A stretch of 20,000 bases of DNA from the IMG/VR virus record IMGVR_UViG_3300020048_000100; one strand, given 5' to 3'. The DNA is from an uncultured virus (IMG/VR IMGVR_UViG_3300020048_000100). Taxonomy: Duplodnaviria; Heunggongvirae; Uroviricota; Caudoviricetes. The number at the start of each line of letters is the position of its first letter. Position 1 is the first letter of the stretch. The notes beneath the pieces are model-generated. The model worked only from the letters and a program-made list of their open reading frames with translations, did no database searches and was not told the DNA's origin. Shown here in pieces: positions 1 through 20,000 of the stretch. Made by a program: the position numbers and the translations under genes.

Positions 1-94
1 AAAAAAATAGAGAAACAGAAGAAACTTCTTTACCAGACTATATTGGTCCAAGTATTGTTGTAATACTTGTTTGAATTTGAGTATTTATTATCAT
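1..94 (-). CDS. Hypothetical protein, N-terminal fragment (runs off the window start)
   Basis: ATG at 94 with GGGGG SD-like run at 106-110. Reads MIINTQIQTSITTILGPI*SGKEVSSVSLFF with one in-frame TAG. Confidence 0.6.
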
Positions 95-110
95 ATCAAA
101 AATTACCCCC

Positions 111-1310
111 TTAATTTTTTAATTCAATAAAATATGTCTATCCATCATATATAATTTTTAAAATATTTACAGCATTCTAAGATATATCAAAAGTATTTTC
201 TGTATTATTTAACCATTTTATATTACTATCTTTTAATGTTATAGTATAGTTACCAATATTATTTTGTATTAAAAACAAAGTCTATTCAAATCCATAATTT
301 ATATCAGGGCAAATAAAATATAAATCAAGATTTTCATTAATAATTAGTTTTTGTATATTACCATTAGCCCAATCTATAAAAACAGAACTCATATCCATTT
401 CATTTTCTACTACCTTATATCCAAATATATTTTCAACTTTTGATGGTGTATCTGTTTTCATAATTTTATTTGATTTTTTTTCATATGTTAAATCATGGTT
501 ATGAATTGGTGTTGATAATCTATTAACATAGAAATATAAAATATCAGATATATTTAAATATTGCAAATAGTCATAATCATTATTATAATAGTTACAGTTT
601 AGAGTTATATCATCAAAATTTATTGTTTCATTCTAATTTATCGTAATATTAGTTTCTTTTTTAATAATTCCAATCAATTCAAGCAAAGATAAATCTATAT
701 TTTCATCATCTGTAGATTGGATAATATTTAATATATTATTTATTTCTGATTCAATACTATTTTCTGACAATTCAATTTCATAAATTGAATATTCTTTATT
801 TCCAATATGTTTTAAAAAATATAAACTATTCTATGCTTTGTTTGTATAACTTGATGAAATTGTAAATATTAAATTTTCTATAACAGATTGTTTTGATAAA
901 AATCCAGTTATTCTGTATAAACTTGTTTCAACATCTTCTATTATTTCTACAAATTCACATGGCTAAGTAAATGTCTAATTATTATTATTTTTTGATAACA
1001 TAAAATAAGTTTCATTTCTTGATATATTATACAACTCTATAATATTTTCAAACATTGAAAACATTGGCAAATTAAGTTTATTCCAAGAAATGTTAATAAT
1101 ATAATACCCATTTTCTATTATATATGTAACCAAATCTGTTTTATATGGAGTTATTATTGAAAATTGCTAATTCTAAAAATATTTAATATTCGTAACAAAT
1201 TGTTTATGTTGTGATAAAATCTATAAATGAAACAAATCAGTAATACTTGAATTTAATAAACTTCTTGATAATTGACTTCCATTATTATATAGTTTAGGTA
1301 TTGAACTCAT
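111..1310 (-). CDS. Hypothetical protein (~399 aa), probably virion/baseplate-associated by context; TAG read through
   Basis: ATG at 1310 with GGGGTGG SD, open to TAA at 111-113 when TAG is sense. Contains track ORF 282..566 in frame. Starts immediately after the upstream gene's TGA (1312-1314). Confidence 0.75.
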
Positions 1311-1311
1311 T

Positions 1312-4300
1312 TCAAAATTCCACCCCAATCCAAGAAAAAAAACTTTCGTAGTTATACTAACTTAATGAATTTTTTTCTTTTAATACATCCCTGAGAAAAA
1401 TTGTATTATGCTATTGTGACTGGTATTGACTTTTCTAAAATACACTGCTCATTAAAACTAAATTTGAATAAATATTAGAACCATGCTCAATCAAATTACC
1501 TTCCAAATCTTTAATTTTTATATCATTATAATTCCTTAATTGTATTTTATCGCCACCAATATTAACAGAAATTATATTATCCTAATATACTTTCTATTCG
1601 TGAACATTTATAAATGCTATATTACATGATGTATTTGATATAAAATTCAATTTAATTTTTTCAATATCCAATAAATTAGTTATACTAAACAATTCAATAT
1701 AAATATTGTTTAATTCTCTATCCATCTTATAAATTAAATCATATTTACCTATAAAACTGGTTTCTAATATATATTCATATATTATAATATAATTTAATTC
1801 ACCAGCAGAATTAAATTTATGAAATAAATAAAATATTCTAATATTAGAATCTTTATTATATAAATTATATTTACTATATTTATCTATTAATCCACCATCA
1901 ATCAAAAATGAGTCTGAATTTAATGTATCTATATTATTTCTAAAATAATAATTATCTGAATTTCCATATATAAATGATTTTAAAGGATTAATAGTAATGT
2001 CATTTGTTGAAATATATTTACTTAGTTCTTCTAAATCATTATCAAACTACTTCTAATCAAATACATTATAATAAGGTGAATTGAAATAAATATTTGAAAT
2101 ATATCTACCATCAACATGCATTAACTAACTGTTATAATCATCTATATTATTAAATCTTTTTCTATTTAGATAAGGTTCTAATTTATAATTAGCAACTATG
2201 TGTTCTTGACTAATTTCAAATTGTGTAAATAAATTACAATTTATTCTATTGTATAATTCAGTTTTAATCAAATTATTTATATTTATGTTTTCAAAATGTG
2301 AAAATACAGTATCGATTTTATATAAATTAGTATCCTAAATATCTCTAAATATAACTTTTTTTCTATTGTCATCTAATAATTGTATGGATAAATTAAAACT
2401 ATCCTATACTTTTTGTATTTCCTAAGGATATATATATTTATCTAATTTCTAATAATATTCAAGCTACCATTCAGTTAAATAAAATTTATTTGGAGTATAT
2501 AACACCATAATCTGTTTCAAGTTCTATATTTTTAAAATTGGATTATATTTTGATTCAAGTAATACATTAAAATTATTTTTGCTTAATGCCTACATATCAA
2601 AGTTAAAAATTATAGGTATTAATTGATTTGTAACTTGTGGTAAAGATATGATAAAATTTTCATTATAATATGTATCTAAATATAAATGCAATATTTTTTG
2701 CAAATTTATAAATTTAAAAAGATTTCCTGTAGATTGCTCAATATCATATATTTCTAAATGTGTAACATCCTATAAATTTTCTTTTAGAGTTACTTTTAAA
2801 TGATAATCAATTTTATAATTTCTATATATACTATATTTATTAAATGTAGAAATAAGTTCATATTCCTAAAGTTGTATTTGCTTATATTTTGTAATAATTG
2901 TACACGCTTTAGATGAATATAGAATACTAATATTTTTTATTATATAATTTTTAGAAACAATATCAATGAATCTTAGATAATATATTTTATTTAATATATT
3001 GCATATATTTGGAAATTCTTTATTGAAAACTAAATTGAATATTGTAAAATTATTAAATGTTTTATTTTGAATCGTACACTATTTTTCCAATATATTTATG
3101 TTTTTATTTTTTATAGATTTAAAGCTAAAATTAAACTCCAATATTTTTCTATTTGCTAAAATAAAATTAATATTTATAAAATCAAAGTTATTTGTATTTC
3201 TAATATTTTTAAATTGTACAAAATATGTATTAGATTTATTTATAATTCCATAATATAATATATTAAATATATCAATTACTGTAATATTTTTAATAATTTT
3301 AGAACTAAAATTAAACTGTTTTTGTATATTTTTTATTAGTGTATAAGCAATACTACTTGATGCTGTTGATCCCTATGTTCCACCATTTATTTTAACTGTT
3401 CCGTTCCCTGTTTTGTTAAGGTTCAACTAATATGAAATTGGAGTAAATTGAGCAGTATAAGTTGTCTACTACTATGGCATATTAAAAGTATAAGTCTAAT
3501 TGCTTGATACTAATGTTCCACCATTGTACCAACCATTAAACAAATATCCAGAATTTGGTTCTGCATATATTGTAGTAGATGTTTCAACTTCAATCTAATA
3601 AGTTATTAAATAAGTGTACCAAGAATTATTATTTACTTTAACTCTTCCAGTATTTGGAATTCCAATACCAAGTGTTAAATCTCTTTTTTTTATAAATTTT
3701 GCAGTATATGTTATCTATGACTAAGGCATATTAAATGTATAAGCCTAATCGTTTGATACTAACGTTTCACCATCGTACCAACCAATAAAAACATTTAATA
3801 TACTAACAGGAGTTGGATTTGCTGTTATTGTAATTGAAGTATCAGAAACAAAACCACTGGATGCAGTCTAATCCTAAGTACCACCATTTATTTGAACTGT
3901 TCCAACTCCAGTACCAGCAGTATTTAAATTTAGTTGATATATTTGTGCTTCAATTCCAAATGAACTTTGTGAACCCTAAGATACATAGTTCCAAGTTAAC
4001 TAATCATTAACTAATTTTGGTATATAAGGTTCATAATATCCAGCAATACCCAACTGGTTAAAATTATTGTTTCCCCAAGCATATAACTAATTATTATTTT
4101 CTAATATTGCTAAAGTGTGATACCCATTTTCCCCAAATCCAACACTCACTTGTTTCCAAATACTATTACCTATTAAAGTTGGGGAAGTTTTATTAACTTT
4201 TGTTCCATCACCCAATTGACCAATACCGTTAAGTCCCCATGTATATAAATTTCCATTTATATCAAGTGCCTAACACATATACTTCTACATATTGCATGAT

Positions 4301-5022
4301 ATCTATTTCCAATCAGATGTTCCAATTTGTGTTGGAGTATATCTATTATTAGTATCGCCAAGACCTAAAACACCATATTCATTATATCCCCAAGAATATA
4401 ATTTATTATTACTTGCTATTCCAAAAGAAGCATAATACCCCTAAGAAATATATTTCCAAGTTGAAACTCCTATTTTTGTCTATATTGTTACTGAAGTGGA
4501 AGTTGATCCTATACCAGCTTGCCCATAACAATTATTACCCCACTAATACAAATAATCGTTTTCGTCTATAGCTAATACAGCACTATCAAACGCACATGAT
4601 ACAGTTTTCCAATTTGAAGAACCAATTTGAAATGGAGTATATGTTGAACCTATTGTTGGATGTGTATATATTATATAATTATTATACCCCCATGCAAATA
4701 ATTTATTATATTCATCTATAGCAATACAACTTGGATAATTATAAGCACTTACACACTATACAACTTGCTTCCAATTAGATGTTCCAATTTGTGTTGGAGT
4801 ATATCTATCAGTAGTATCTCCAAGACCTAAAACACCATATTCATTATATCCCCAAGAATATAATTTATTATTATTTTTTATTGCAAATCCAGAAAATATC
4901 TAAATATTTACCTATTTTATATCAGTAAGACCAGATGCTGTTGGAATAGTTACAGTCTATGTATTTCCATTGCCCAACTACCCATATAAATTTCTACCCC
5001 AAGAATAAAGATTATTCTACAT
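1312..5022 (-). CDS. Large virion protein (~1236 aa): N-terminal RCC1-repeat beta-propeller, InlB B-repeat-like modules, long unassigned C-terminal region
   Basis: ATG at 5022 (GGAGGG SD) with no TAA/TGA in frame until TGA at 1312. RCC1 repeats such as LYSWGYNEYGVLGLGDTTDRYTPTQIG and GQLGDGT at ~4000-5020. Modules such as FIGWYDGETLVSND*AYTFNMP*S*ITYTAKF at ~3350-3950. Contains track ORF 1594..1905 in frame. Confidence 0.85.
4307..4872. repeat. Intragenic direct repeat, ~104 bp x2 (4307-4410 and 4769-4872), duplicated RCC1 blade
   Basis: The two copies are 462 bp apart, in frame, and differ at about 4 positions by manual alignment. Confidence 0.85.
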
Positions 5023-5041: not shown

Positions 5042-7444
5042 TTAGCAACTCAGAGAATTATATATTTCAAAACTTGCAAATGTTTCTGATATAATATCTT
5101 CATCAAACTAAGATTCCTACTATTGATTATATTTCTATTTATAATTTAATAATATACACTGTGTATTATTAGACTAATTAAAAGTCTTTACAATTTTTAT
5201 TCTGGAATATGTTGTATCAATTATTTGTGGAACTGGAAGAACTGTATCTTTAACTGTATATAATGGTAATATAGTATAATCATACTATATAATTTCTTCT
5301 TGTAATTTTATATTTATTGGATTCTACATTATAAAATTTTCAAACTCTAATGTTTCATTAAATATTTCATTAGTGCCACTTTTAATTATTTCCCCAATCT
5401 GATTTTCAAATAAGAATAGATTTAAAGAATTTGATATAAAATATTCTTCGTTTGAATTTGTAGATATTGGTAGTAAATACTATGTCTTTATTTTTTTTGG
5501 CTTATTCTAAATAATTTGAAATTGCAATGGTAATATATCATTAGATTCCAAAGTATTTTCTATAATAACATCAAAAGATTCTAAAAACTTTTCCATATTA
5601 ACATTTATAATGCCATTTACTTCTGATATTGCAGTTAATATATCTATTAAATTTATATTTTCATAAATATTAAATCTATTATTTTCTATTTTAGAATACT
5701 GATCTAACTTATCTTTTAGATTATAAAATATTGAATTTATAGATATTTTAGAATCCTAAAATATTTCTATTGGATTTTTACTATATATATAATAAATTTT
5801 ATTACTCTAAAACTAAACATCCATTGTCTATATTATATTGTTTTTTAATTCTTGCTGAATATTATATTTTTCTTTTGTATAATTAAATTTAGATAATATT
5901 ATTGGGTCTTTGATTAACTCAGAAGATAATATTTTACTTCCTTTTGGCAAATAGAAATTTCTTAGATTATCATCTTTAAATAACTAAGGGCAAATATATA
6001 ATCTATTTTCTAACCCATTAACATATGATTTATTTTGTATGTATTTATAAGTTGAAGTCTAATTAAGAGAATCAGAAAATCCTCTGAGGAAATATTTTAA
6101 ATAATTATTTATGTCATTTATTGTTACTATTTTATTTTTCTATTTAATATATGAATTAAAATTATGTTTTATAGACTCTATTTTTTCCTAATTTCTCCCA
6201 ACAACTACATTTTCTTCTTGCTTAACTATAATACTTAATGGGCTATAGCCATAATACTGCATAGATTCATTTGTATTTTGTATATTTAATAAATCAAATA
6301 AATATATTTCTGTTTTTTGATTTTGTAATTCTTCCTATGTTAAATAGCTCTTTGTATTGAAATTGTATTTTATTTTTATTTTTTGAGGGATAAACAATCC
6401 TTTTATATTGTAATCAGTATAATTATTAAAATCAACATAATTCAAATATATTTTATCATTTATTAAAATTTGAGATTCAAGACCAACATATCTGTTTACT
6501 TGCCCTAATATCTAATTCTAATTTTCACCTTTTGTTTGATAATACTATAAAAATAATGGTAAATCATTCTACTTTATTTTATAACCATTATTAATATCAT
6601 CACCATTTATTAACTCAAAAATATTTGTTATTTCATTATAACTAAGAGTTATATATTTATTTTTAATATAAGAATCATAATCTGATACATGATACTTACT
6701 ATTCTAAATAGTTTCTACATTCTTAAATGTATCATATAAATACTCAGTAATATTTCTATTGTTAAACATATATTCAATTTTTGTTTTTGACATTATTTTT
6801 AGATCTAAATAAAGTCTTTTGAAATCATCTATATAATGATCTTTGATTATATAACCTTCTGTTTCTGATAATATATTATTCCTTGATAGTTCTTCCAAAT
6901 TTGGATTAAATGGTTTAATAACCAAATGCATTTGTATAAACTAAAATATATTACTTCCATTTGTGGATGCCATTCTGTATGAATAATATTCATTATTTTT
7001 TCCAAATTTATCCATTGTTCTTGTAACAAGAATTGAATTTTTATTTAGCCAAATATTGTTATTCTAATCAATGACTCGTAATATCAGAGGTGGAATTATA
7101 AAATTTTCTATTTCCAGCATATTTAATTGTATCATTGATTTTGAATCAAATTTTAAATTTAAATTAACTTGCGAAGGTATACCAAAATTCTTTTTATATC
7201 CATATTGACTTAATAATAATTCTATTTTATCATTATTCTATGTTGCAATATAAAAATCTGAAACCTATTGCTCAAATTGATTTGATATTAATACAGTTAT
7301 ATAACTCTATATATCTGTTATTAAAGACTATGAATCCTATTGATTAAAATCAATATATTTATATTTATCATAATTAGATTTTAAATATTCAATAATCTAT
7401 TCTTTAAGAAAATATGGATTTACTAACTCATTAGGCTATGGCAT
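5042..7444 (-). CDS. gp6: Baseplate wedge subunit, T4 gp6-like (~800 aa); TAG read through
   Basis: ATG at 7444 (GGGGG SD), open to TAA at 5042. N-terminus IIEYLKSNY...IDFN...LITDI*SYI...EQ*VSDFYIAT*...QYGY and central YYQTKGEN*N...GRN*EKIESIK...K*KNKIVTIND match gp6/baseplate-J-like motifs. Confidence 0.75.
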
Positions 7445-7481
7445 ATTTTAACCCCCAAAAATACTGCAATTTATTTTTTAC

Positions 7482-7523: not shown

Positions 7524-7552
7524 TTGACAAATTGATTTTTTTATGGTATAAT
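7524..7552 (+). promoter_or_regulatory. Consensus sigma70/sigmaA promoter with extended -10
   Basis: TTGACA (7524-7529), 17-nt spacer, TG-n-TATAAT (-10 at 7547-7552), upstream of an AGGAG SD and ATG 7595. Confidence 0.9.
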
Positions 7553-7594
7553 TTAAAACTTGAAAAAAGGAACATAAAAAAGGAGATATCAAAA

Positions 7595-7816
7595 ATGATT
7601 AAAAACTTTAAATTTAGAAATACAAGAATGTATACATTTTTCTTATGTCTTAAATTCAATATAAGAATGAAAATTGGTGAATGTTTATAGATAATTAAGA
7701 AAACTGGTAATTATAAATATGATTTTGATAAAAATGAATGGATAAAAATTAAAAATAATGAAAATTATAATTTTAATGATTCTAAAAATAAAAATCTTTT
7801 AATTAGAAAAAAATAA
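7595..7816 (+). CDS. Small hypothetical protein (73 aa, one TAG), paralog of the next gene
   Basis: AAGGAG SD and ATG 7595; TAG at 7688-7690; TAA at 7814-7816. The GNYKYDFDKNEWIK motif lies after the TAG and is shared with 7833..8117. Confidence 0.75.
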
Positions 7817-7832: not shown

Positions 7833-8117
7833 ATGTTTAAAAATGAAACAATCGCTAAAACATATTTGTATCTACATAATAGATATGGTGATACTAAATT
7901 ATATCAATTTTTTATTGGTATATATTTTAAGATAATACATAAAATAGCATTTATTAAATCTCTTAATAAAAAAAGAGGTAATTATAAATATGATTTTGAT
8001 AAAAAAGAATGGATTAAAAAAGAAATTTTTTTTAATTTAAATGATTTCAAAAATACAAATAATACAGATTTTGATGAAAAAGTAAATAAAACAAAACGTT
8101 GTTTACCAATCAAATAA
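7833..8117 (+). CDS. Small hypothetical protein (94 aa)
   Basis: GAGGTG SD; ORF in track; GNYKYDFDKKEWIK motif; no TAG; ends in TAA. Confidence 0.8.
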   Translation: MFKNETIAKTYLYLHNRYGDTKLYQFFIGIYFKIIHKIAFIKSLNKKRGNYKYDFDKKEWIKKEIFFNLNDFKNTNNTDFDEKVNKTKRCLPIK

Positions 8118-8184: not shown

Positions 8185-8637
8185 ATGGAATCTACTTTTA
8201 ATTCAAAAGATGTATTTATTAATAAACTGTTTAATTTTCTTAAAAATAGTACATTTATAAATGATTTTAATTTTGAGAATGATGAAATAAACACTATTGA
8301 TCAATTTGAAAATAGATTTGGGCATAATGTAAATGAAGATGCAAAATTTACTACAATGACAATAACATTAGATACTGGTATTAATTTTGTATTTTATAAT
8401 ACACCAGAAACAGATAAATTTAAAGTTGGTGTTTATAGTTATGATTTTCTTTCTAAAAGAAGATATAAACTATTTTATTCTGATACACCAATTACAAGTG
8501 AAGAGTTTAATAAAATACTTATTTTGCTAAAAGATAGGCATTTCAGTGTTGACAATCCAATTAAATCATTGGAAGATTAGTTGTATTTAACATCAGATGA
8601 TGAAACTCCATTGAATGAAATTGAAGAAATAATTTAA
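8185..8637 (+). CDS. Hypothetical protein (150 aa with TAG read through)
   Basis: GGGGGA SD. The track ORF stops at TAG 8578-8580; readthrough adds *LYLTSDDETPLNEIEEII to TAA 8635-8637, which closes the gap to the next gene. Confidence 0.75.
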
Positions 8638-8836: not shown

Positions 8837-9274
8837 TTATTTATAATCATCTGTAAACATTGTATCTCCATCGGGAAACAGTTTACACTACCAAGTAATC
8901 TTCTTACCATTTTCATCTATTTTTTCATATCCCTAAATAGGATATCTGATATTCATATTACCCTATTGACCAGAAACAGAATCAAAATTTTTAATATTTC
9001 TATAAAAATATACAATTTCATTTACATTTGCAAATTTAGTATCAAATGAAACAACTTTTCCTGAGTTATGAACTACCTAAAATCCAATTAGTTTTTTAAT
9101 TTCTATATTTTTTATAGTTCTTTTAGTTATATTTCCATTTTGTGAATAAAATTGTGGAATAATTTCATAATCTGTATCATTGTTTTTACTATAAACCTCA
9201 AGCCAACACCATTCGGTATCCAAAAATTTTGGCTATCCAATATAGTTTTCTTGATTAGAATAATCAATATTCAT
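8837..9274 (-). CDS. Hypothetical protein (145 aa); TAG read through
   Basis: ATG 9274 with GAGAGGA SD; MNIDYSNQENYIG*PKFLDTEWCWLEVY...; open to TAA 8837. Confidence 0.75.
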
Positions 9275-9396: not shown

Positions 9397-9954
9397 TCAA
9401 ACAGTTTCATCATAAGAAACTGAAATTGTTGTTGTTCCCCCTGCTGTCTAAGATGCCTATACATGCAAAGTCAAATAAACAAAATCAGTATAACTATCTT
9501 CTACTGTAATACTATTAGTTGTACTTCCACCAATAGTTATATTAGGATTTTCTGGTGAAGAAGTTGGAATTGTTGTATAACTTACTAAATCACCCTAACC
9601 AATTTCTGACGTAGAACCACCAACTGGCTAAGTGTATGTTTGCACAGTTTTATACAATAATGTACAATTTGCAGATGGGTTAGCATTAGTAGCCCAAATT
9701 CTAAAATTTGAAATAGAAGCACTTGCTGGTGTTCCCATATCAGAAACTAAAAGTCTTAAAACTCTTTCGTAAGAAGTATTAGGTGAAGATGGCAAAACTC
9801 TAATTGGATATGTCTATGGTGACTATAATGGGCTAACATCCTACCCCATCAATGGTAAACTTGTTAAATCCTATCCTTCATTATCTTCAACAATTGTTCC
9901 ATCTCCTGCCCCAACAGCCCCATAACTAACAGATAATTTAACAACAGCCTACAT
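9397..9954 (-). CDS. Putative virion structural protein (185 aa, Ser/Thr/Gly-rich, beta-strand pattern)
   Basis: AAGGGGG SD; M*AVVKLSVSYGAVGAG...TYPI...SYERVLRL...ISNFRIW...TDFVYLTLHV*AS*TAGGTTTISVSYDETV; ends in TGA; follows the neck gene. Confidence 0.75.
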
Positions 9955-9978: not shown

Positions 9979-10704
9979 TTAAAAAATTGAAATAGGTTCT
10001 ATAAAATGCGAATGACGGTTCTTCATTTCATCTTCAAGTTCTTTCTTCTATGTCTACTACTCCTAAAGAAGTGTAGAACCATCCAGTTGTATTTGACCTA
10101 CAGTTGTCTGTAAACTTGATATTTTACTACGTATTCGACCCAAAACCTCTTTCGCTTCCTATATAGAGTAATTTAATATCCACATTATATCTGATTCTGC
10201 TATATCAATTAACAATGGGAAATAAAAATAAAATACCAATACTTTAGATTTATTATCAAATTTTTTATAAAATTTTAAAGTATAGGTTCTTTCATCCCAA
10301 GTCCATTCAGGATCAATTCGTAATACTTTTTTAACCATATCATAATAGGAAAAGGTTTCAACCATAGATTGTATATTACCAATAAGAAAATATGGTTTAT
10401 ACATTGAATTAAATAAATGAAAATTATCATCTTCTCTATAAACTTCTTTAACACCAGTAATATTTCTACCCAATGAATCTTGAACTCTAATAGAATACAC
10501 ATCAAGAAGAGGATCGAATGATTCAGATATATAAACACCCATATATGGGTTTTCCTTAGCATAAAACAATCTCTATTTGTTTATCTACATGTCTATTTGT
10601 TCAGATGTTAGTTCTACATTTATTACTGGAAATCCAAGAGAGTTTAGCAAATTATCTTTTATATATTGAAATCTCTATACCTCTTCATGTGGTATAATAC
10701 TCAT
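9979..10704 (-). CDS. gp13: Neck (head-tail adaptor) protein, T4 gp13-like (241 aa)
   Basis: LGFPVINVELTSEQIDM*INK*RLFY and WILNYSI*EAKEVLGRIRSK...IQLDGSTLL*E match the N- and C-terminal gp13 motifs. Contains track ORF 10159..10569. Confidence 0.85.
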
Positions 10705-10709: not shown

Positions 10710-11147
10710 TCAATTGGCTCCTTCAAACTGTTTCAGAATATTTGCTTTACTCATTTTTTGATATTTTGCTGTATCTTCATCTTGAATTTTACCAGAATCA
10801 ACATAATGCTTAATTAATTCTTGTTTAGTCATGTTTTCAATTTCAATAATATCTTCATTTTTTTTATCTACATCTACATATGAAGATGTTTCTAATTTTG
10901 GTTCTTCAATTTGAACTTTTTTAATATCTTCTATTTCTTTAATTGTTGTTTTAACAATAGATTCTTTTTCTTTTACCTCATAAAATACATTTGGATTTTT
11001 AGTGATATAATATAACAACTAATCTTTATATTTCTAATTAAAATTCTATGTATCATATTTTTCATTTTGCTTAAAATAAAATACATCAGAATTGATCATG
11101 AAATTTACATCTTTATATACCCCAAACTTTATATCTTGCATATCCAT
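10710..11147 (-). CDS. Hypothetical protein (145 aa) downstream of the capsid gene
   Basis: Track ORF 10710..11018 extends through 3 TAGs to ATG 11147 with a GGTGA SD. Confidence 0.7.
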
Positions 11148-11275: not shown

Positions 11276-12745
11276 TCAGGCAGTAGGATTCAAAATTTTA
11301 AGTTTTCCAAACCAATCATTACGATACATATGAGTAGCATATCTTGTATGGAAAACAATTCCCATTTGCCCTGTGCTTTCAGTCCAAGGTACAGCAGTCA
11401 AAGGAATGTAAGGAGCATAAACATAACCAGATTCCTCAATACGTGAACCCTTATAAACCATAAGAATTTCATCTGTGGGCACCAAATTAGATGTATAAAC
11501 TTTATAAGTTCCACCATTAACATCAAACTTAGAATATCCAACAGATACGTTTTCTTCTCCAAGAGGGGTAATAGAAGAAGCCCCATAGGACTACAGCTAA
11601 CTTCTAAGAATCTACAATGCGGTTGGGTGCATAACCATAATCTTAGGTTCAGCAATGTTAGTTCTTGTCTACATTGTCTATGCAAGTTCATTTATCTTAA
11701 TCATTAATGTTTCATACCAATCTTTTCTTGTTCCATAGAAAGCAGATGCGGGTTGCTGTTTATCCCAAGTAACATAATTACTCTTGCTCTATCCATTAAA
11801 CAATTCATTCAGAATCTGACCATTGATTTCTTGAGCTAAAATATTAGCAATATTATCATACATTTCAACTTGAGCATCAAGACCATCAATAGCAGACACA
11901 TCTTCCCAAAATTCAGGGTGCCATTTTGCTCTCAGCTTTCTATTAGAAACGGTAACCTATTCATTAGAGATTTCAAAAGTAACTTCTCTACCATTGAAAT
12001 CAGAATTTTCCTATGAAACCCAATCTTTTGAGTATTCAACTTTAAGTGTCCAAGTACCAGTAGACTATGCTTTTCTAAGTTTTTCAATTGTATAAATTGC
12101 AAGAACACCATTTTCATAGTCAACTGATCCAATAATACCATCACCAACAATCTTTCCAAGCCCATCATCAGACTAAATATATTCAGGGTCTAAGAAAGAA
12201 CCAGAATCTCCAACAACAGTATTCTGCAAGAAAAGTTTTACACTACCAAGGGCAATCTTTGTTGAAAGACCTGTTTTAACCCATGATTGTGTATCATTTG
12301 TGCTGTTGATTTCATTTTCAGCAGAAACAAGTGCAGCAGAAACAGGAATGTTCTAACCACTCAAAGGAACGATCCCAGGAAGTTGTGTATTCTAATAATT
12401 TACAACCAATTTTCTAATGAATCCAGTAGGCTATGAAATAGCTTGTGTGGAAACAATCTCATTAGCAATAAGCATAGGCCAATATCGTCTAACCAATGGA
12501 AGAATAACCTTAGAAACTTTCGCAACATCAAATTGTGAGTTAACAGCTTCTGTCAAAAGGTATTTTCTTTCATTTTCAAGAACCATATTAAACTGTGCTT
12601 GCATTTTAGGACTTGTAAGTGTCTTTGATTCAGTTGTAATAATTCTTTTCTTGAGCTAATCCCAAAGGGTATCTGTGGTAACAACCTTTGCAAAATTATC
12701 TTCCAAACTTTTGTTTTTCTCGTACATACTTGAAAAATTTGCCAT
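11276..12745 (-). CDS. gp23: Major capsid protein, T4 gp23-like (489 aa, 14 in-frame TAG)
   Basis: AGGGGG SD. Motifs LPLVRRYWPMLIANEIVSTQAIS*PTG, RKLRAKWHPE...DGLDAQVEM...QEINGQIL and YKGSRIEESGYVYAPYIPL...TRYA. Confidence 0.95.
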
Positions 12746-12781: not shown

Positions 12782-14869
12782 TCACTATAGTTTTTCAATT
12801 GAATTAAGTGTGTTTTTAAAATTTGAATTTTCGTCTGGATATACTGTATTAATTTTTGATGTATTCAAAAGTTTTGAGCTATCTTTAATAGAAACATCCT
12901 TTGTTGCTGGTGTTGCAACTTCTTTTACTTCTTTTTTCTTTTCAATGTCAAACAAACGCATAAACTATTCATTTAATATTGTATTTCCATCTTTTGAATA
13001 AGATTCTTCTAAATTTTCTTCCTCTTCCTCGTCGTCCTCATCATCTTTAGGTTCTTCATTTAAAATGTCATCTGTTGTAAGATCAGGATTGAAACTATTT
13101 TCAGTATTATCTTTTATGTCTTCCATTGAACCAGATTCTGGTTCTTCTGGTGTTTCGTCTGGAGTTTCAGGCTCAGGTATTGGTTCTGGCTCAATTTCCC
13201 CCTAAATAGCTTGTGTATCTTCTTTTTTCTATCCAAGTGTTTCCAAAGAATCAGAAACATTATTCTAAACTTTATCCCCCAATTGTTCCTATGTATTATT
13301 AAGTAATTCTTCAATTTTACTAACAATTTGTTTTGTTACTTCTGCCTAAATAGAATCAATTTGAATTTCAGGTTTTCCCTATTCTGGTTCAAGTTCAGCA
13401 GTATCCTCAACATCCTATTCAAAATCTTCATCTGCTTCTTTTATAATTTTTTTAGATTTTTTAATTTGCTTAGATTCAATCTAAACTTCACTTATATTTG
13501 ACCAATCCATCTAACCAGAACTAATTTTTCCAACTGGTTTTTGTGTTTTATCAGACATAATTGTGTATTCTTTTGATTTTGAAAGCATTGGAATTATTCT
13601 TTCGATATCTGCTTTTGATTTAAAGAAACAACCATCAAATAAATCAGAATCCAAAATATAAAACAGTTCTTTAACATTATTATCAATTTCAGAAGGTTCC
13701 TCTTCAATCTCAGATTCTGGGGTTTCTGTAAATGGTTTTGATACTGGTTCAACAGAATTTTCCTATTCTTCTTTAATAACTTTTTTATTAGTGGTTTTCT
13801 ATTCCTATTGCAAAGTTTTTTTCTATTCATCCAATTCTTTTACTTTTGCATCAAAACTATCTACCAAAGTGTCTTTCTACTATTTTGTTTGATCAGATGG
13901 ATTTTCCATATAATTCTTATTCTATTCTGTTAATTTTTCATAAATGATTTTAAGTTCATCTGTTAATGTTTGAATTTTATCCATTTTCTCACTCTACTCT
14001 TTTACAATATTATTTTTATTCATAGTTGTCTACTCCTATATATTTTTAAATTTTATGAAATCATTCCATTTTATGATTGCTTGATTCTAATTGTTATCCT
14101 ATTGGTTTTCTAAGTTTAACTATGTATTAAAATCATATGCTACATAATTTTTTACAGAATTTAAATCTAATTCATCAGATTGTATATCAACAGGAATACC
14201 TTTACCACTTGTAACTGCATTAACGATATCATACATAATACTTAAATCATTTTCATTATTTTTAAATTCTTTTTTAAAATTTTTTGTTGGTATAGAAACT
14301 ATGTAATTACCATTTTCCAAAAAATATATTTTTTCAGTAGTATTATTTTCTGTAATAAGATTTGTTTCTAATGATTCCATAATTCTTTTTTTAACTTCTT
14401 TAACTTTAGTGTTTTTATTTGATTTTATATTACTCTCTATCAATGCAATAAGTTCTTTTTTTATTTTCTATGTCTAAGATTCAATAAACTGCATATTTTC
14501 ATCTGAATCAGAATCTGTTTGATTTTCCAAATCTAATACTAAATCCTCTTTTTCAACTTCTTCTGGTTGTATGAGTATATTTGTTTCTGTTTCAGACTTT
14601 TGTGATGTTACCCCTTCATTTGCATTAGTTTCACCATTTAAAGTTTTTTCAATAGCATCTACAAAATTTATATCTAATCCTGCTTCTTTCTATTTAGTTA
14701 TAACTTTTTCTTTCTATAAATCATATATTGTATTCTAAATAGTATAGAGTTCTGATGTATTTGGTTCCTCAAAATTTTCTGGGATATCTTGTATTCTATT
14801 TTGTGGATTGCCTGAGTATGTTTCCCAAGACAATTCTGAATTTCTGATTTCTTCTGGTGTCATTGTCAT
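12782..14869 (-). CDS. Prohead core/scaffold protein (up to 695 aa, acidic, Glu/Pro-rich); possible second start at 14023
   Basis: AAGGAG SD and ATG 14869; no TAA/TGA in frame until TGA 12782. Lies between protease and capsid genes. Many I/L-x-E motifs. Internal AGGAG...ATG at 14023 is in the same frame. Confidence 0.7.
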
Positions 14870-14878: not shown

Positions 14879-15619
14879 TTACATAATTATTTTATTTCTA
14901 AACTATGATACTTCACGCTAAATAAACTATTTTAATTGTTTAATTTCAGATTCTTTTATAGAAGTATCATTTTTAATATCATTTTCTAATAATTTAAATA
15001 AAATAATATCATTCAACTTCTATAACTATTTTGTATTACCTATAATTTCTTTATTTTTATCTATTAAATAATTCATGTTTTCTACTAAATTTTGTTTTGT
15101 AAAATATGTAATTGGATATGACGGATTAGAAACAATATCCCATGTAATAATATCTAATGATTCAGCAATATAATTTCCTTTTGCCTATCTTAATTCACCA
15201 GACTATCTCAAACTTGTGCCAATAGAAATATCTTGTTCTATTAGATTCATAAGAATCTACCCATTTGGATTATTTTGAATTATTTCAAATTCTCCACCAA
15301 CAATTTTATTATTTTTGTCTACTTTAATATCAGTAATTAAATGGGACTATTCTTTAAAATATACAAGCCCTGATCTCTCATCACCATGGGGATGGTCAAG
15401 TTCTCCAACTAACTAACGTTTTGAAATTTTTTCTTGAATATTAGAAATCTAAGTTTCCATTTCTTGTAGTGGATAGATTCGTCTATTAGCACCCTATACA
15501 TCGCATTCAATAAGATTTAATCTAAATTTTTTAGGTTTTTCTTTATTGTTAACAGAAACAGATTCTGTTATAATTGGTTTTTGATATAATTTAACTTCAT
15601 TTAAAATCATTTTTGACAT
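14879..15619 (-). CDS. gp21: Prohead core protein protease, T4 gp21-like (246 aa)
   Basis: GGTGA SD. Motifs ANRRIYP, GELDHP, *SHLIT, NPNG*IL, IGTSLR*SG and WDIVSNPS; ends TAA TAA. Confidence 0.92.
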
Positions 15620-15706: not shown

Positions 15707-17725
15707 TTATTCTTTTTCTTCTTCATCTTCTTCAGTTTCTATAGTTTCTTTAAAATTCTATAACTCTGTAGATGTAAATACTTTGAAATAATTCAATAAA
15801 TTTTCTACACTAAACCCTGTCATTTCATTTATACTTCTTATTAGATCCAATCTCTAAGATATTGTTTCCTATCTTTCCTTTTGCTCAAGCTATACAGGCT
15901 AAAATAGTTTACAAACAATTTCTTCTTGGTTAAGCATATCTTTAATAGTCTTATCTACTAAATATGTTGTTCTTTTATTATTTATTGTTGATAAAATATT
16001 AAAACTGTTTAAGAATAATTGATTAATTCCTTCATTCAAATCCTATTGAAGATGTATAATCTGCCTCTACATTCTGTGATCTTGTAAAGTTAATACTGTC
16101 TATTGTCCACTTAAATTTTCATTATATCCTAAATAGGAAGGGGGGATTTTCAAAGATGATAGTAATTTATCATGCCAATATTTCATATCATCATACCACT
16201 ATTGCATTTGCTATCCTTCTACGTTTTCTATATTTAATAATTCATTTCCATTTTTTTTCAATATAAAATAATCTTCCATCAATGTAATTAAATCAAGATT
16301 TTCTTGTAATGTACCATTAACATCAATAGTTTTTTGTGATTTCAATTCATTTTTAATTCTGTTAACATATTCAGGTATTTTTTCTTTCTAAATTCCAGTT
16401 ACGTCTACAACATACTTTTTTCTATCTGGCTATTTTGTTAATCTGTATATGATCATCTAATATTCTAATAATAATATTAAAGACTATATAGACCTAACAG
16501 AATCTAATAACCCCTAACCATATGGATAATATTTATAATCAGTTAAAGTAAAATGCTAAATATGATCTGGTAAAATATATCTAACCATTCTATTTTTTAA
16601 TATGCTCCCATAATTTGGATCAATATCCATTAACTATTCTATTCTTTTATCTTCTCCACTTTGTGTTTTATTTCCCATATATGGATTTAAATCAATTTGG
16701 AATTGCAATGTAAATTTATCTTTTAGCATCTAAGAATTGACTGTCTATTCTTTTAATAATTCCTAAAAATTTGCTCTTTGAAAAGAATCATTTAATAATA
16801 CGGATCGAATATCATCAAACTATTTTGCAGTTGATTTATTACTCTAACCATTTAAATCCATTATAGATTCAAACATAATATCTTGGTTGTCTACTGATTC
16901 TTTAAATACCTAAATATTAGTAAAGTTTTTAAATTTTTCAACATCTAATTCTTTTAATAAGAATGTTAAAAAATCTAAACTTAATCTTGTTTCATCTAAT
17001 AATTCATTATTTATATCTTTTGGAAGAACTAAATAACCAAGACATACATTATCTAATTGCAATATTAAAACTTGTTTTGGTGATAGTGAATTGTATGTTA
17101 AATAATTAGAAACGAATAAATCTTTATTTAATTTTTTTGATACAATATTCTATTCATCTTTATTAGACAAAATTGGGTCTGATATTTCTATAAATCCATC
17201 ACCATAAAACAACTAATTATGTATAGCTTGTTTTATAATTGGATAAATTTTATTTCTTCTTGCATATATACTTAAATAATCCTATAAATTAACATTAATT
17301 TTTTGAAGCAACCCATCATTATCTTTTTTAAATTCAAATTCTTGTATCTATTCTTCTGTGTTCATATCAAAATTTATAAATTCAGATGTATATATTTCTG
17401 GATTTATAACTAAATCATATACAAGTTTAACCTAATTATTCTATTCTGGTATTTTCTACTATATGAGTTCATACTCCATATATCTTGATAATCTCTATTG
17501 AATATATCTTGAATAATCAAATTGAGAAAATTTCTGAATCTAATCATTGACATCGCCAAATATTCTACTACTTAATAGCCCATAATACTGATCTTCGACT
17601 GTTTGCTCTATTTTATCTTTTGTATAATTAAAAATTTTCTGTTGTAATTCTGAATCTACAACATTTTTTGTTCCTCTATTAAAAATTGCTTTCTAAAATT
17701 TCTTTATTGAATCACGTATTGCCAT
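15707..17725 (-). CDS. gp20: Portal protein, T4 gp20-like (672 aa)
   Basis: Motifs IPE*NN*VKLV, FYGDGFIE, I*HF...PYG*GLLDSVR...LEY*MIIYRLTK*PDRKKYVVDV, MEDYFI, SLKIPPSYLG and QDHRM*RQIIHLQ. Confidence 0.93.
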
Positions 17726-19277
17726 TGTCTGTATCCCCACTTTCTTCTGAAATCAAATTAATGATTTCATTTTCGTTTGCATCTTTCAAATATAAAAATA
17801 CAATTATTGTTACTAATTTAATCAAATTATTTTGTTTTCCATTAATTATATCAATATAATATAAATAATACTTCTTTTCATTTAATAGAGATTCAACTGT
17901 TCTATTATATAAAACTGGAGAAAAAGACACTTCTTTTTCTTCTTCATATTTTTCAACTGTAATATTTAGTTTTTTACCAAGATAATCTTCTTTAAACTTC
18001 TTTTCTATTTGTATAATTTTATCTAAAGATTCTTGCTATTTTTCTAATATTTTTGATAAAATTTCTTTTACTTCTTGGTTTTTATCGTTATATTTATTAT
18101 AAAGATAAGAAGTTATTGATTTATATGTTAGTTCTGGTAATTTTGATTTTAATGTTTTATTCTAATCTCCAATTATTAAATCATTGATCTATTGTCTAAA
18201 TATTGTTTTTATTGCTGGCTGATCGTTTTCTTTATCATATTTTGTTATGTTTTCTATTGGACTCCAAAAAAATTTATTTAATTCAGAAAAATAATTTCTA
18301 TCAACAAGTTTAACCATTTCATCTTTATTTGTTGAATCTCTAAATACAACTCCTTCAATATCATTTTTGTTATATAATTTATCCTCTAAATTTTTATTTA
18401 TTGATTTTAATAATAACTATTTAATTTTTGTTTTTCTATTAAACATTTCCTCTATAATATTTGACATCTATGTTTTATATTGATCTCTTTTACTTATTGG
18501 AATACTATTTAATTTTAAATTACAAGCTTCATCATTTGTATATTCTGGTATATCTTTATTTTTCTAATTCATAAAATCTTTAAAAGAATTTAATTCCTAT
18601 TTTATTTGATTAAATACCTCTTTATTCTAAAATTCAGGATAATTATTAACTTGTTCTATTTTTGATAATGTCCAAGACTCTTCTTTAACAACAGAAAATA
18701 AATTAACTGATTTTTCATTAACTTCTTCTAATTCATACTGTTTTATTTTAAATGTAAAAACAGAATTTTTGCTTAATAGCTCATCTATAAAAATATCAAA
18801 AGTCTATTCGTTTAATTTTTCTGTTTCATACTCTTTATTATCTAAAATAACTTTTCCACCAAGAGGTCTTATAATAATTAACATACCATATTTATTTCCA
18901 TAATATAATATATTTCCATTTAATGGAGGTACTATTTCACATTCAAAAGAATAATTCTTTTCTTTTGGAAAATATTTTTCAAAAATCTATTTATTTTTAT
19001 TGTATATTTCAGACATAAACTTATGCTAACTTCGTATATTATTATAAATATACGTTTTTCCCCATTCTGTATAATCTTTTTTTAATTCTATTTGATTTTT
19101 AGAAATTCTACACTAATAAATTTTATCTTCTATAATAGAAAATGATATATTCTAAACTCCATCAACTTTTACACTCTATAATAAAGTTTCATCTGGGTTT
19201 ATAATATTATCAACCCATTGGATAAATTTCTTATTTTCTAAATCTTCTATATGAATAATACCTTCTGTTAATATCAT
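17712..19277 (-). CDS. Nucleotidyltransferase/RNA-ligase-fold protein (DUF6267-like, 521 aa)
   Basis: HIEDL, motif I VKVDG, motif III FECEI, motif IV IEGVVF and motif V MVKLVDR...F. Open from ATG 19277 to TGA 17712 and overlaps the portal start by 14 nt. Confidence 0.7.
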
Positions 19278-19293
19278 TTTCTCAACACCTTTA

Positions 19294-20000
19294 TTAAATA
19301 TCTAAGAGTTTTTTAAACAAGTTTTTCTATTCTTTTTTTGTAGTTATTAATTGTTTATATAATTGTTTAACCTATTCTGATGGGTTTTTGATATATTGTA
19401 TCTATTTATAATTTTTATTTATCTACTACGTTTGAACCTATTCTGTTGGGTTTTTAATATATTTTAACTAATACTAATCTTGCTTAACCTACTATAATTG
19501 AACCTATTCTGATGGGTTTGTAATATATTGTATCTAATTCCAATTTTGTTTAATCTACTACATTTGAACCTATTCTGATGGATTTTTAATATATTCTAAC
19601 TAATATCCATTTTGATTTACCTACTACATTTGAACCTGCTCTGATGGATTTTTAATATATTGTATCTAAAACCCATATTTTTTAATCTACTACATTTGAA
19701 CCTATTCTGATGGGGTTTTAATAAATCGAATCGAATATTCATATTGATTAATCTACTACATTTGAACCTATTCTGATGGGTTTTTTATATAACATATCTA
19801 ATTTCCATTTTGATTTACCTACTATAATTGAACCTATTCTGATGGGGCTTCAATATAATATATCTAATTTCCATTTTGATTTACCTACTATAATTGAACC
19901 TATTCTGATGGATTATCAATATATTTTATCTAATGCCCACTTTGTTTTACCTACTATAATTGAACCTATTCTGATGGATTATCAATATATTTTATCTAAT
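19294..20000 (-). CDS. Helical tandem-repeat protein (DUF4116-like), C-terminal part; start lies beyond the window
   Basis: 22-aa unit NPSE*VQ(L/M)**(V/I)(K/N)QNGx*IxYIK repeated in one frame, ending TAA TAA at 19294. Confidence 0.85.
19365..20000. repeat. Coding tandem repeat, 66-bp period, about 10 copies in window
   Basis: CCTATTCTGATGG core (or a near variant) at 19371, 19437, 19503, 19569, 19635, 19701, 19767, 19833, 19899 and 19965. Confidence 0.95.

Follow-up and report, generated by a model that had tools for sequence, protein, structure and literature searches.

Evidence that the amber codon encodes alanine in a clade of AT-rich T4-like phages

Conserved alignment columns, codon exchange between relatives, profile scores, amino acid composition and the tag of a phage tmRNA strongly support the reading of TAG as alanine in a phage represented by a 20,000-nucleotide stretch of DNA (hereafter the window), as had been proposed from the letters of the window in an earlier note. 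In the literature searched, no phage is described as giving TAG this meaning. We hold it to be about 60% probable that the full explanation is an AT-rich T4-like clade with TAG as alanine, in which a still unseen tRNA-Ala(CUA) is charged by the host AlaRS and the host RF1 is outcompeted or disabled.

The window corresponds to the virion-gene (head-and-tail) module of a T4-like phage with very high AT content. Under table 11, it contains 10 open frames of at least 80 aa versus 23 with TAG read through, and 16 non-overlapping genes cover it once TAG is treated as sense (Table 1). In-frame TAG occurs 255 times among the 6357 codons of these genes (4.0%) and is present in each of the capsid, portal and protease genes; in-frame TAA and TGA are absent. 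Several hallmark proteins of T4-like tailed phages are encoded: Gp23, Gp20 and a gp21-type protease are coded by the window, and a PF17482 sheath protein and a PF00136 family-B DNA polymerase by linked contigs. The RCC1-repeat protein may be tail-fibre-like, and the position of the acidic protein upstream of the capsid gene suggests a scaffold-like product. In the portal motif that aligns to T4 LLEDAVVIYRITRAPDRR, conserved alanines are written as TAG, and in the DUF4116-type repeat, NPSE-x-VQL-xx-V..NG.-x-I.YI, the x positions are TAG. The claim that all stops in the window are TAA or TGA holds (10 TAA and 6 TGA), with the qualification that it is partly built in by reading TAG through and that two small ORFs may still end at TAG, namely 8185-8637 of the window and 1983-2291 of the locus L034, each with one TAG 18-19 codons before its end. 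Independent support for the stops comes from the capsid gene, whose TGA is aligned with the TAA stop of its relatives.

Table 1. Genes of the window with TAG treated as sense
Coordinates	Strand	Product or feature	Length (aa)	In-frame TAG	Stop	Pfam and remarks
111..1328	-	Gene	405	10	TAA	No Pfam family
1312..5022	-	RCC1-repeat and InlB B-repeat protein	1236	45	TGA	PF25390, PF00415, PF18998
5042..7444	-	Gene	800	32	TAA	No Pfam family
7532..7816	+	Small ORF	94	1
7833..8117	+	Small ORF	94	0
8185..8637	+	Small ORF	150	1		TAG at codon 132 (8580), possibly its true end
8837..9274	-	Gene	145	5
9397..9954	-	Gene	185	9	TGA
9979..10704	-	Gene	241	8
10710..11147	-	Gene	145	3	TGA
11276..12745	-	Major capsid protein, T4 Gp23 family	489	14	TGA	PF07068, E 9e-46; T4 gp23 alignment
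12782..14869	-	Acidic protein upstream of capsid gene	695	29		No Pfam family
14879..15619	-	Prohead protease, T4 gp21 type, S77/S80	246	12		PF03420, PF20034
15707..17740	-	Portal protein, T4 Gp20 family	677	34		PF07230; T4 gp20 alignment
17712..19277	-	Gene	521	14	TGA
19294..19998	-	DUF4116-type repeat protein	234 codons	38		5' end beyond window

Beyond the window, the analysis drew on nearly identical phage DNA, about 161 kb in 27 contigs of the bin G001, a fragmented and incomplete genome from which window bases 7423-8613 are missing, together with a 95% identical relative (L225, 7.8 kb) that spans the scaffold gap of contig C9. The lineage occurs in wastewater-type habitats and is widespread. 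It was not found in the viral collection searched, and its capsid protein is only 25-31% identical to the T4-like capsids of GenBank. Across 128 phage ORFs, TAG accounts for 3.2% of the codons, and for up to 16% in one gene. It makes up 1594 of the 2485 TAG and GCN codons (64%) in a genome of 24% GC, in agreement with the suggestion that TAG suits an AT-rich composition. Each decile of gene length holds a similar number of TAGs (142-176), and base usage directly 3' of TAG matches that after codons in general, which indicates no special context. TAG is also a sense codon in relatives with capsid identities as low as about 50%, whose capsid genes each have 12-24 in-frame TAGs. As judged from these genes, the sense code is old and clade-wide. 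The earlier note had likewise expected a long-standing code from the distance between TAG and the GCN codons, which is indeed at least two positions (two for GCG, three for GCA, GCT and GCC).

Alignments with homologues point to alanine as the residue. In a comparison with 145 distant portal homologues, alanine is the plurality residue at 5 of the 15 TAG columns (107/145, 87/145, 76/140, 56/128 and 34/131) and glutamine at none. When the phage DnaK is set against 30 standard-code DnaKs, alanine holds the plurality at 8 of 15 TAG columns (29/30, 29/30, 29/29, 24/29, 22/30, 21/29, 18/29 and 13/29), and at three conserved positions of the J domain, TAG in DnaJ falls opposite an alanine of both references. 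The combined log-odds over the 30 portal and DnaK columns are +17.6 nats for alanine, -5.0 for serine and -19.6 for glutamine; applied to ordinary residues, this scoring identified 18 of 18 testable ones correctly. The capsid genes of the clade (6 lineages, 50 TAG columns) give a similar picture through codon exchange: the non-TAG cells are alanine in 34% (6.75x background), serine in 18%, threonine in 12% and glutamine in 2.6% (0.86x). The codons opposite TAG include GCA (34), GCT (21) and TCA (14), and just 7 of the 190 differ from TAG by a single step. With respect to the stepping stones TCG and GAG that had been proposed, serine receives weak support as the commonest non-alanine partner of TAG, and glutamate receives none.

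Profile scores and composition lead to the same residue. With TAG set in turn to A, Q, S, G, E, L, K and Y, alanine gave the best Pfam score for DUF4116, RCC1, WD40_RLD, RCC1_2, Portal_T4 and Gp23. DUF4116 scored 69.4 bits with alanine, 37.0 with serine, 28.9 with leucine and 15.9 with X; setting TAG to Q, G, E, K or Y left no match within the E<=0.001 cut-off. The RCC1 score was 172.9 with alanine, 167.5 with serine and 160.2 with glutamine, and that of the portal 111.9 with alanine versus 95.2 with glutamine. The GCN (1.81%) and TAG (3.24%) codons of the phage add up to 5.05%, compared with 4.52% alanine in the co-binned bacterium; glutamine is about 3% in the phage and 2.74% in that bacterium.

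A further line of evidence is a tmRNA of the phage (RF00023, 98.8 bits, E 2e-37, full length over model positions 1-374), which is also called by ARAGORN. Its tag of 30 codons ends in Q-P-V-TAG-M-TAG-A-stop (TGA), placing TAG in two of the last four codons, and a canonical A-x-A-A end arises only with TAG as alanine. The tag of the bacterial tmRNA in the same bin ends in L-A-Y-A-A-stop, and the resume codon follows the same TAAAC motif in both. The phage molecule shares with its family the full-length match, the G3:U70 pair of the acceptor stem and an Ala-Ala tag end, whereas its tag is long and the canonical end depends on the phage's own code. tmRNAs are known to be borne by the genomes of huge phages; this one would probably clear ribosomes stalled once TAG stops terminating.

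The other meanings of TAG have to be weighed against this evidence. Glutamine (genetic code 15) is the sole TAG meaning published for phages with a code unlike that of the host, as far as the available text of the sources goes; the public entry for this capsid protein has Q at all 14 TAG sites, and of the 15 TAG columns in DnaK, three have glutamine as the plurality residue, including one that is invariant (29/29). Nevertheless, we regard it as the least probable of the readings, given its negative log-odds, the lack of a plurality at any portal TAG column, its background frequency in the capsid clade and the loss of the DUF4116 match; it would further raise glutamine to about 6%, leave alanine at only 1.8% and end the tmRNA tag in Q-M-Q-A. 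Serine is the runner-up everywhere: its portal log-odds are +3.5, it falls only 2-4 bits below alanine in the Pfam scores of Gp23 and Portal, and it is 2.4x enriched in the capsid clade, an enrichment expected from the usual substitution pattern of alanine. It too is very unlikely, with DnaK log-odds of -8.6 versus +10.3 for alanine, a negative combined score, little more than half the DUF4116 bits, TAG in near-invariant alanine columns of Hsp70 and DnaJ, and a tag end that would read S-M-S-A. An ambiguous TAG, mostly alanine with some glutamine through competition between the suppressor and a near-cognate tRNA-Gln(CUG), would account for the three DnaK columns; such a tRNA is found in both G001 and a second bin, G262, and TAG columns are less conserved than GCN-alanine columns (0.59 versus 1.65 nats per column). 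This reading appears equally improbable, as glutamine is not enriched at TAG columns (0.68x in the portal, and below background in the capsid clade). Single TAGs in DnaK also occur at a conserved lysine and a conserved valine, so that ordinary substitution or noise in the alignment seems to explain the isolated non-alanine columns.

The machinery that would decode TAG as alanine was sought in all the DNA at hand. The earlier note had recognised no tRNA or release factor gene in the window, and this stands: ARAGORN found no tRNA or tmRNA gene there, Rfam in E-value mode gave no matches at E<=1 in the window and 10 small phage contigs, and Pfam searches of 14 of the 16 window ORFs and 112 phage ORFs recovered no release factor, synthetase or tRNA enzyme. 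Matches to PF00472, PF01411 and PF00749 lie only on bacterial contigs of G001. No tRNA with a CUA anticodon was found in the 161 kb of phage DNA, in the 95% identical relative or in the three co-binned genomes. ARAGORN and RF00005 gave 27 matches on all 70 contigs of G001, none of them CUA on inspection; relaxed and intron-tolerant ARAGORN, Rfam in E-value mode on the window and 26 of the 27 phage contigs (all but C61), and a scan for GC islands likewise yielded no CUA tRNA. A custom cloverleaf scan returned 52 hairpins and no cloverleaves, and a search with relaxed criteria for CUA hairpins in the non-coding DNA (8.5 kb) gave 16 AT-rich chance matches. None was found in 16 metagenome loci of relatives, nor among the 21 tRNAs of G262 and the 34 of G153. 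The sole tRNA of the phage is Ile(UAU), with U:A at pair 3:70. The combination that had been named as refuting the alanine route, a Gln-type CUA tRNA with a phage GlnRS, was not seen in the available DNA in either of its parts. Nor did this DNA show a phage RF2 or an RF1 antagonist. Since the predicted machinery was not found, the decoder is one that we infer, and a tRNA-Ala(CUA) in unseen phage DNA is the most likely candidate. An alanine-accepting tRNA with anticodon CUA would be made during infection and charged by the host AlaRS via G3:U70, with the anticodon ignored, while the host RF1 would lose out in competition or be disabled; the genes for this tRNA and for any RF1 antagonist are most likely located where the phage genome lacks assembly coverage.

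Of the 128 ORFs, 16 are free of TAG and are grouped in blocks of 3-4 genes. If TAG occurred at its mean rate, the probability that such a gene contains none would be down to 9e-7. These blocks, which are probably early genes, argue for a code switch during infection.

Two further alternatives concern the decoder. It may be unconventional: an odd or split tRNA, a tRNA from the true host, or a host tRNA reprogrammed by the phage. The empty result of sensitive and custom searches favours this, as do the single ordinary tRNA in all the phage DNA and the presence of an RNA ligase and other TAG-free genes, and in its available text Borges et al. (10.1101/2021.08.26.457843) suspect non-canonical suppressor tRNAs too. 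On the other hand, the genome is incomplete and in 27 contigs, no candidate odd RNA was seen, and the simplest route would need just one change in the anticodon of tRNA-Ala, as documented in the available text on algal mitochondria (PMC6821328); an unconventional decoder is possible but clearly the less likely solution. Alternatively, the host itself could read TAG as alanine with the phage following its code, as the earlier note had also allowed. The host assignment is tentative, since the phage pieces are binned with two unrelated-looking genomes, and the available phage DNA yielded neither a suppressor tRNA nor a release factor or synthetase gene. However, the bacterium of G001 is a standard-code candidate that has RF1, RF2 and one AlaRS and ends 120 of 653 long ORFs (18%) in TAG, so that RF1 must be bypassed there. 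The G262 genome reads TGA, not TAG, as sense (long-ORF cover is 0.10 under code 11, and rises to 0.16 when TAG and to 0.64 when TGA is taken as sense). The TAG-free blocks would also be unexpected were TAG always safe, and the literature searched reports no bacterium with TAG as alanine. A recoded host is therefore improbable, and a tRNA-Ala(CUA) charged by the host AlaRS remains the preferred reading.

As described in the available text of the sources, the "code 15" phages (crAss-like, Lak, Garnet/Agate and others) resemble this phage in low GC, structural genes in which TAG is concentrated, blocks of genes compatible with the standard code, hosts without the recoding and a suppressor tRNA that often goes undetected, being found in only 40-52% of TAG-recoded phages (10.1101/2021.08.26.457843; PMC11210395). 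They differ in that TAG is glutamine there and alanine here, and the present phage is T4-like, from wastewater-type habitats and very dense in TAG. An RF2 is reported in the available text for six Lak and two Agate phages (10.1101/2021.08.26.457843), whereas none was seen in the available DNA of this phage. The same codon and amino acid are paired in the mitochondria of the green algae Hydrodictyaceae/Neochloris, where, in the available text, the reader tRNA(CUA) is closest to tRNA-Ala(UGC) (PMC6821328), a type of reader that we also propose for the phage. No such tRNA was seen in the available phage DNA, and the algal code serves an organelle that has a release factor of its own and from which UAG had first vanished. 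The virus, in contrast, would impose its code in a cell, the standard-code candidate for which stops at TAG.

Laboratory tRNA-Ala(CUA) amber suppressors exist and take the same AlaRS route, for which the candidate host has its one AlaRS; these are engineered and act at single sites, whereas here a natural genome has about 1600 sites in 128 ORFs. AlaRS reads the G3:U70 acceptor pair and not the anticodon, so that one anticodon change would be enough and no new synthetase would be needed. The G3:U70 identity makes alanine easy to move onto a new codon.

Under code 11 the window yields 10 ORFs of at least 80 aa, and once TAG is read through it is tiled by 16 non-overlapping genes, 13 of which lie on the minus strand. 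By Pfam, these include the T4-type major capsid protein (Gp23), the portal (Gp20) and the prohead protease, together with an RCC1-repeat protein of 1236 aa and a DUF4116-type repeat protein. In this DNA, with a GC range of 19-32%, 255 of the 6357 codons in the 16 genes are in-frame TAGs (4.0%); GCN alanine codons account for only 1.8% of codon use and glutamine codons for a normal 3.0%. The gene ends, 10 TAA and 6 TGA, partly follow by construction from TAG read-through; these stops are supported by the capsid gene stop, which coincides with the stop position in relatives, by the even distribution of TAG along gene length and by the base 3' of TAG, which is the same as that 3' of any codon. 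Neither ARAGORN and Rfam nor Pfam on 14 of the window ORFs recovered a tRNA, tmRNA, release factor or synthetase in the window. The gene, tRNA and Pfam scans thus bear out the first observation of the earlier note, of a window devoid of tRNA and release factor genes with TAA and TGA as stops. Between two minus-strand virion blocks lie three small ORFs on the plus strand, each with at most one TAG.

In G001, a 1.3-Mb genome bin that also includes a standard-code bacterium, nearly the same sequence as the window is spread in pieces over contigs, and all contigs of the bin were analysed. The phage part comprises 27 contigs (161,278 bases; 26 contigs and 159,065 bases before C61 was added) each of which either is TAG-sense itself or shares a 55-base end overlap with a contig that is; the bacterial part comprises 43 standard-code contigs (44 in the codon statistics, made before C61 was reassigned). 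The earlier note had taken TAG to encode alanine, and portal, DnaK/DnaJ, log-odds, relatives' codons, trial readings, composition and the tmRNA tag agree on this. With seven lines of evidence converging, we consider the premise very likely right (probability roughly 0.93).

In the most conserved motif of the portal, both TAGs lie opposite alanines of T4 gp20 (LLEDAVVIYRITRAPDRR), and a third TAG faces an alanine beyond this motif. An exhaustive search gave 150 portal homologues, of which the 145 distant ones were retained. Alanine is the plurality residue in 5 of the 15 TAG columns (107/145, 87/145, 76/140, 56/128 and 34/131); the other pluralities are Gly in three, Pro in two, Thr, Trp, Lys, Asn and Leu in one each, and Gln in none. 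Contigs of the same phage encode a full-length DnaK and a DnaJ. Against 30 standard-code DnaKs, alanine is the plurality in 8 of 15 TAG columns, including near-invariant Hsp70 positions (29/30, 29/30 and 29/29), and three conserved J-domain positions of the DnaJ have TAG where both references have alanine. Summed over 30 portal and DnaK columns, the log-odds are +17.6 nats for Ala, -5.0 for Ser and -19.6 for Gln; as a control, the same score returned the right residue for all 18 testable ordinary amino acids.

The DNA of relatives, sampled as 16 metagenome loci, gives the same answer. The capsid gene, found in 15 of the 16 at 50-97% identity, has 12-24 in-frame TAGs in each. At the 50 TAG columns compared among six lineages, 34% of the non-TAG cells have alanine (6.75x background), followed by Ser (2.4x) and Thr (1.3x), with Gln at background. 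The codons opposite TAG are chiefly GCA (34), GCT (21), TCA (14) and ACA (13), and of 190 partner codons only 7 lie a single mutation from TAG; hence, the exchange tracks amino-acid identity and not mutational nearness. Four window genes were also translated with TAG as A, Q, S, G, E, L, K or Y and scored with Pfam; alanine gave the best score for every family: DUF4116 (A 69.4, S 37.0, L 28.9, and no match for Q, G, E, K or Y), RCC1 (A 172.9, S 167.5, Q 160.2), Portal_T4 (A 111.9, S 108.0, Q 95.2) and Gp23 (A 170.0, S 168.3, Q 165.9). In composition, the 128 phage ORFs have 1.81% GCN and 3.24% TAG, and in the co-binned bacterium, whose GC content is the same, Ala makes up 4.52% and Gln 2.74%. 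A 943-aa phage protein with a Gly/Ala-rich hydrophobic stretch carries runs of two and three TAGs beside GCN alanines (GGGGG-xxx-AAST-x-LAGMS...), which reads naturally as poly-alanine.

The last of these lines is a full-length tmRNA encoded on C9, a 42.9-kb contig that is TAG-sense throughout. Its acceptor stem has the classical G3:U70 pair, and its tag frame begins after a TAAAC motif, as in the tmRNA of the G001 bacterium. The 30-codon tag ends in Y-Q-P-V-[TAG]-M-[TAG]-A followed by a TGA stop, so that TAG makes up two of the last four codons; the bacterial tag ends in L-A-Y-A-A-stop. Ala-Ala at the end of tmRNA tags serves protease recognition, and the phage tag acquires this canonical ending (A-M-A-A) only if TAG is read as alanine. 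The SmpB family is absent from the phage ORFs scanned.

Some results sit less easily with a pure alanine reading, raising the possibility of low-level ambiguous decoding of TAG beside alanine. In DnaK, Gln is the plurality residue at three TAG columns, one of them invariant (29/29), and single TAGs fall on conserved Lys and Val columns; conservation is also lower at TAG columns than at GCN-alanine columns. We take the non-alanine TAG columns to be ordinary substitutions affecting a minority of sites.

Features and candidates discussed in the text, with their positions on G001 contigs, loci (L) or the window
Feature	Contig or window position	Locus position	Strand	Remark
tRNA(Ile), anticodon UAU	C9 39627-39703	L157 19627-19703	plus	
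tmRNA	C9 c32581-32907	L157 12581-12907	minus	98.8 bits, E 2e-37
DnaK/DnaJ chaperone pair, phage-encoded	C9 33844-35679 and C28 3968-5062			
F420-0:gamma-glutamyl-ligase-like protein	C9 25495-26763	L157 5495-6763		TAG-free
Volactin-family actin homologue	C51 2810-3856	L034		E 1e-58
S-adenosylmethionine decarboxylase	C44 114-485	L027		
943-aa Gly/Ala-rich protein	C50	L033 3-2831	minus	
Shared C-terminal tail	window 19294-19338	3' ends of ORFs on L026, L039, L048, L050, L052		
Segment with three small ORFs	window 7423-8613		plus	
717-aa gene opposite the C9 gap		L225 4718-6868		41 TAGs
Scaffold gap	C38 3099-3198			not bridged
CUA candidate, rejected	C62 c698-767			
tRNA-Met(CAU) 3' fragment	C20 95-159	L093		
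AlaRS of the bacterium	C39 2875-4644	L022		590 aa

The only tRNA on the phage DNA is of the Ile type with the anticodon UAU and U:A as pair 3:70. It lies directly 3' of a promoter-like pair (TTGACA...TATAAT) at the divergent junction of a TAG-poor region, and this rare-anticodon tRNA presumably serves to read the abundant ATA codons. No CUA anticodon occurs among the 27 RF00005 matches in G001, all of which were read, and no credible CUA tRNA emerged from relaxed ARAGORN or a custom cloverleaf scan of the phage contigs, from E-value-mode Rfam scans of 26 phage contigs and the window, or from a GC-island scan. A relaxed CUA-hairpin search of 8.5 kb of non-coding phage DNA returned 16 AT-rich matches, taken as chance. 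The dozens of calls that relaxed ARAGORN (-ps85, introns, mitochondrial mode) placed within coding regions, several of them labelled CUA, were judged noise; the sole intron-less CUA candidate, on C62, has 24% GC and stem mismatches and lies inside a 604-aa ORF. Two of the 16 hairpins, one on the antisense strand of the tRNA D-arm and one in a tmRNA helix (loop UUCUACA, with a pyrimidine at position 37), were likewise set aside. A weak RF00005 match on C20 proved to be an isolated tRNA-Met(CAU) 3' fragment on a bacterial contig and not a suppressor. This fragment may be an integration-site remnant; an integrase is encoded on C37.

Scaffold gaps were considered as hiding places. The 100-N gap of C9, 2 kb from the tRNA(UAU), is bridged by the 95%-identical locus L225 from a second bin, G262, recovered with the tRNA as anchor. 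The bridge is coding sequence only, with a 717-aa gene opposite the gap, where C9 is short of about 2 kb. The gap of C28 has duplicated flanks and is an artefact; at that of C38 sequence is missing. CUA is likewise absent from the 21 tRNAs of G262 and the 34 read in G153, a bin of G001's family. G153 and a further family member, G060, hold other T4-like phage contigs. The G153 phage (C38 and C47 of that bin; L200-L204) is only partly TAG-recoded, C38 1-5000, for example, opening with TAG sense only, and its tRNAs, a 7-tRNA array and one more, include no CUA.

The protein side is similar. Pfam detected no release factor, synthetase or tRNA-modifying family in 112 phage ORFs and 14 window ORFs, and a six-frame search with PF00472 (release factor), PF01411 (AlaRS) and PF00749 (Glu/GlnRS) matched bacterial contigs only. 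The AlaRS on C39, considered as a phage gene, is the sole AlaRS in the G001 bin and has bacterial neighbours. The missing CUA tRNA is not decisive because the phage genome is incomplete: the window segment with the three small ORFs, for instance, is not in the G001 contigs, which are otherwise 99-100% identical. Moreover, in the accessible text of two surveys, a suppressor tRNA is seen in only 40-52% of TAG-recoded phages (10.1101/2021.08.26.457843; PMC11210395). The tRNA(CUA) with G3:U70, and possibly RF2 or an RF1 antagonist, that the earlier note expected in the full genome thus stay a prediction, and the available DNA speaks mildly against a simple tRNA cluster.

The earlier note had also allowed for a host that is itself recoded, which the candidate bins do not support. 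The G001 bacterium (25.5% GC) uses the standard code, with 653 long ORFs ending in TAA (75.5%), TAG (18.4%) or TGA (6.1%), and has both RF2 (SPF motif) and RF1 (PDT at the PxT position). Its AlaRS ends directly after the editing-domain motif, far short of the approximately 870 aa usual in bacteria; the gene stops with TAG then TGA and adjoins a MiaB-type tRNA methylthiotransferase. In G262 (L226-L244, 19-27% GC), long-ORF cover is 0.10 under code 11 versus 0.64 with TGA as sense, making this bin a poor host fit because the phage stops at TGA. Co-binning here mostly reflects AT-richness, as G262 shows, and no CRISPR spacer or long exact match joining the G001 bacterium to the phage was found. 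Hence, neither candidate bin reads TAG as sense, and the host link is unproven.

Of the 128 ORFs on phage DNA, 16 are TAG-free. They occur in blocks: a run of four genes on C9 (22468-26763) and runs of three on both C28 (9205-11139) and C44 (3665-5090). Among the TAG-free products are an RNA ligase, the F420-ligase-like protein and an MT-A70 methylase. These blocks resemble the early genes, kept in the standard code ahead of a code switch, that are described in the part of a preprint accessible to us (10.1101/2021.08.26.457843). One gene has 45 TAGs: at 95% read-through per codon only about 10% of its product would be full-length, and at 99% about 64%. From this number and the lack of a special TAG context we infer that TAG termination is nearly abolished late in infection. 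The question is thereby sharpened to how the virus silences RF1 enough for 45 TAGs in one gene.

The code and its age, the blocks of TAG-free genes and the tmRNA are all observed; to these, the mechanism that we consider most likely would add a tRNA with a CUA anticodon and alanine identity (G3:U70), encoded in phage DNA outside the available contigs. AlaRS does not read anticodons, and that of the host would charge this tRNA; RF1 would be neutralised by an early phage product or by sheer tRNA excess. The tmRNA would rescue ribosomes running off messages after the loss of TAG termination. As an alanine carrier it was itself considered as the TAG reader and ruled out: trans-translation shifts the ribosome to the tmRNA frame and terminates the protein, and so cannot serve 45 internal codons. 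The closest natural precedent, going by the accessible text of its description, is the mitochondrial code of Hydrodictyaceae/Neochloris, where UAG is alanine and is read by a tRNA(CUA) derived from tRNA-Ala (PMC6821328). A further reading, improbable in our estimate, is that this widespread T4-like wastewater clade uses its TAG=Ala code, without known parallel in viruses or cells, with no conventional suppressor tRNA gene at all; working alongside a tmRNA in the new code, an undescribed decoder would then read TAG, for instance a tRNA that is split or not a cloverleaf, or a host tRNA remodelled by phage enzymes such as the TAG-free RNA ligase.

Several further features mark this phage. The Volactin homologue, the F420-ligase-like protein and the S-adenosylmethionine decarboxylase are unusual phage cargo. 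The phage DnaK shares 53-57% identity with bacterial DnaKs of many families, that of the co-binned bacterium being no closer (54%). In the phage DnaK, only 4 of the 37 conserved-alanine columns have TAG, far under the genome-wide share. A common C-terminal tail (KKE-[TAG]-KNLFKKLLDI or KQYFKKILDI) occurs in at least seven large phage proteins that otherwise differ. The shared 3' end of about 47 nt matches many contig ends, and probably explains the fragmented assembly and the break of the window there.

Identity between the capsid and T4-like capsids in GenBank is only 25-31%. In the viral collection, no match was obtained for the capsid protein or its alignment, for the RNA ligase or the F420-ligase-like protein, or for the tRNA as a DNA anchor, and the species-genome collection had none for the capsid alignment; we infer that standard gene calling shatters the genes of this clade and so keeps it out of the viral collection. 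The tRNA-bearing region is present in the 20 sequencing runs listed, from 16 studies (one run possibly being the source), with at least half of its sampled words in 16 of them; five are RNA libraries. By their labels, the samples come from activated sludge, wastewater, landfill, anaerobic digester and groundwater. Four runs were aligned to the phage stretch: the DNA run X3 covers all of it with one contig, to a depth of about 450x, the DNA runs X2 and X8 cover it partially, and contigs of X3 and X15 extend past its left end. Contigs of an RNA library match parts of the stretch exactly, which is compatible with transcription without proving it; other parts, including the tRNA, lack RNA-library cover, from which we conclude nothing.

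Stop-codon-recoded phages are a known system, and it is alanine as the meaning of TAG that is new. The full-text literature searched contains no report of TAG as alanine in a phage or bacterium, though supplementary tables could list exceptions, and the word alanine does not occur in the accessible parts of Cook et al. 2024 (PMC11210395) or the Borges et al. preprint (10.1101/2021.08.26.457843). The latter, in its accessible text, states that only TAG-to-Gln and TGA-to-Trp had been observed in phages with a code unlike that of their host, and offers as the reason that GlnRS and TrpRS are hijackable enzymes. Public protein entries of the clade have Gln at every TAG, and therefore about 3% of their residues are wrong. 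With TAG as the codon for two thirds of its alanines, this clade breaks the published Gln/Trp-only rule, and suggests that AlaRS, being blind to the anticodon, offers recoding a second route that is easier still.
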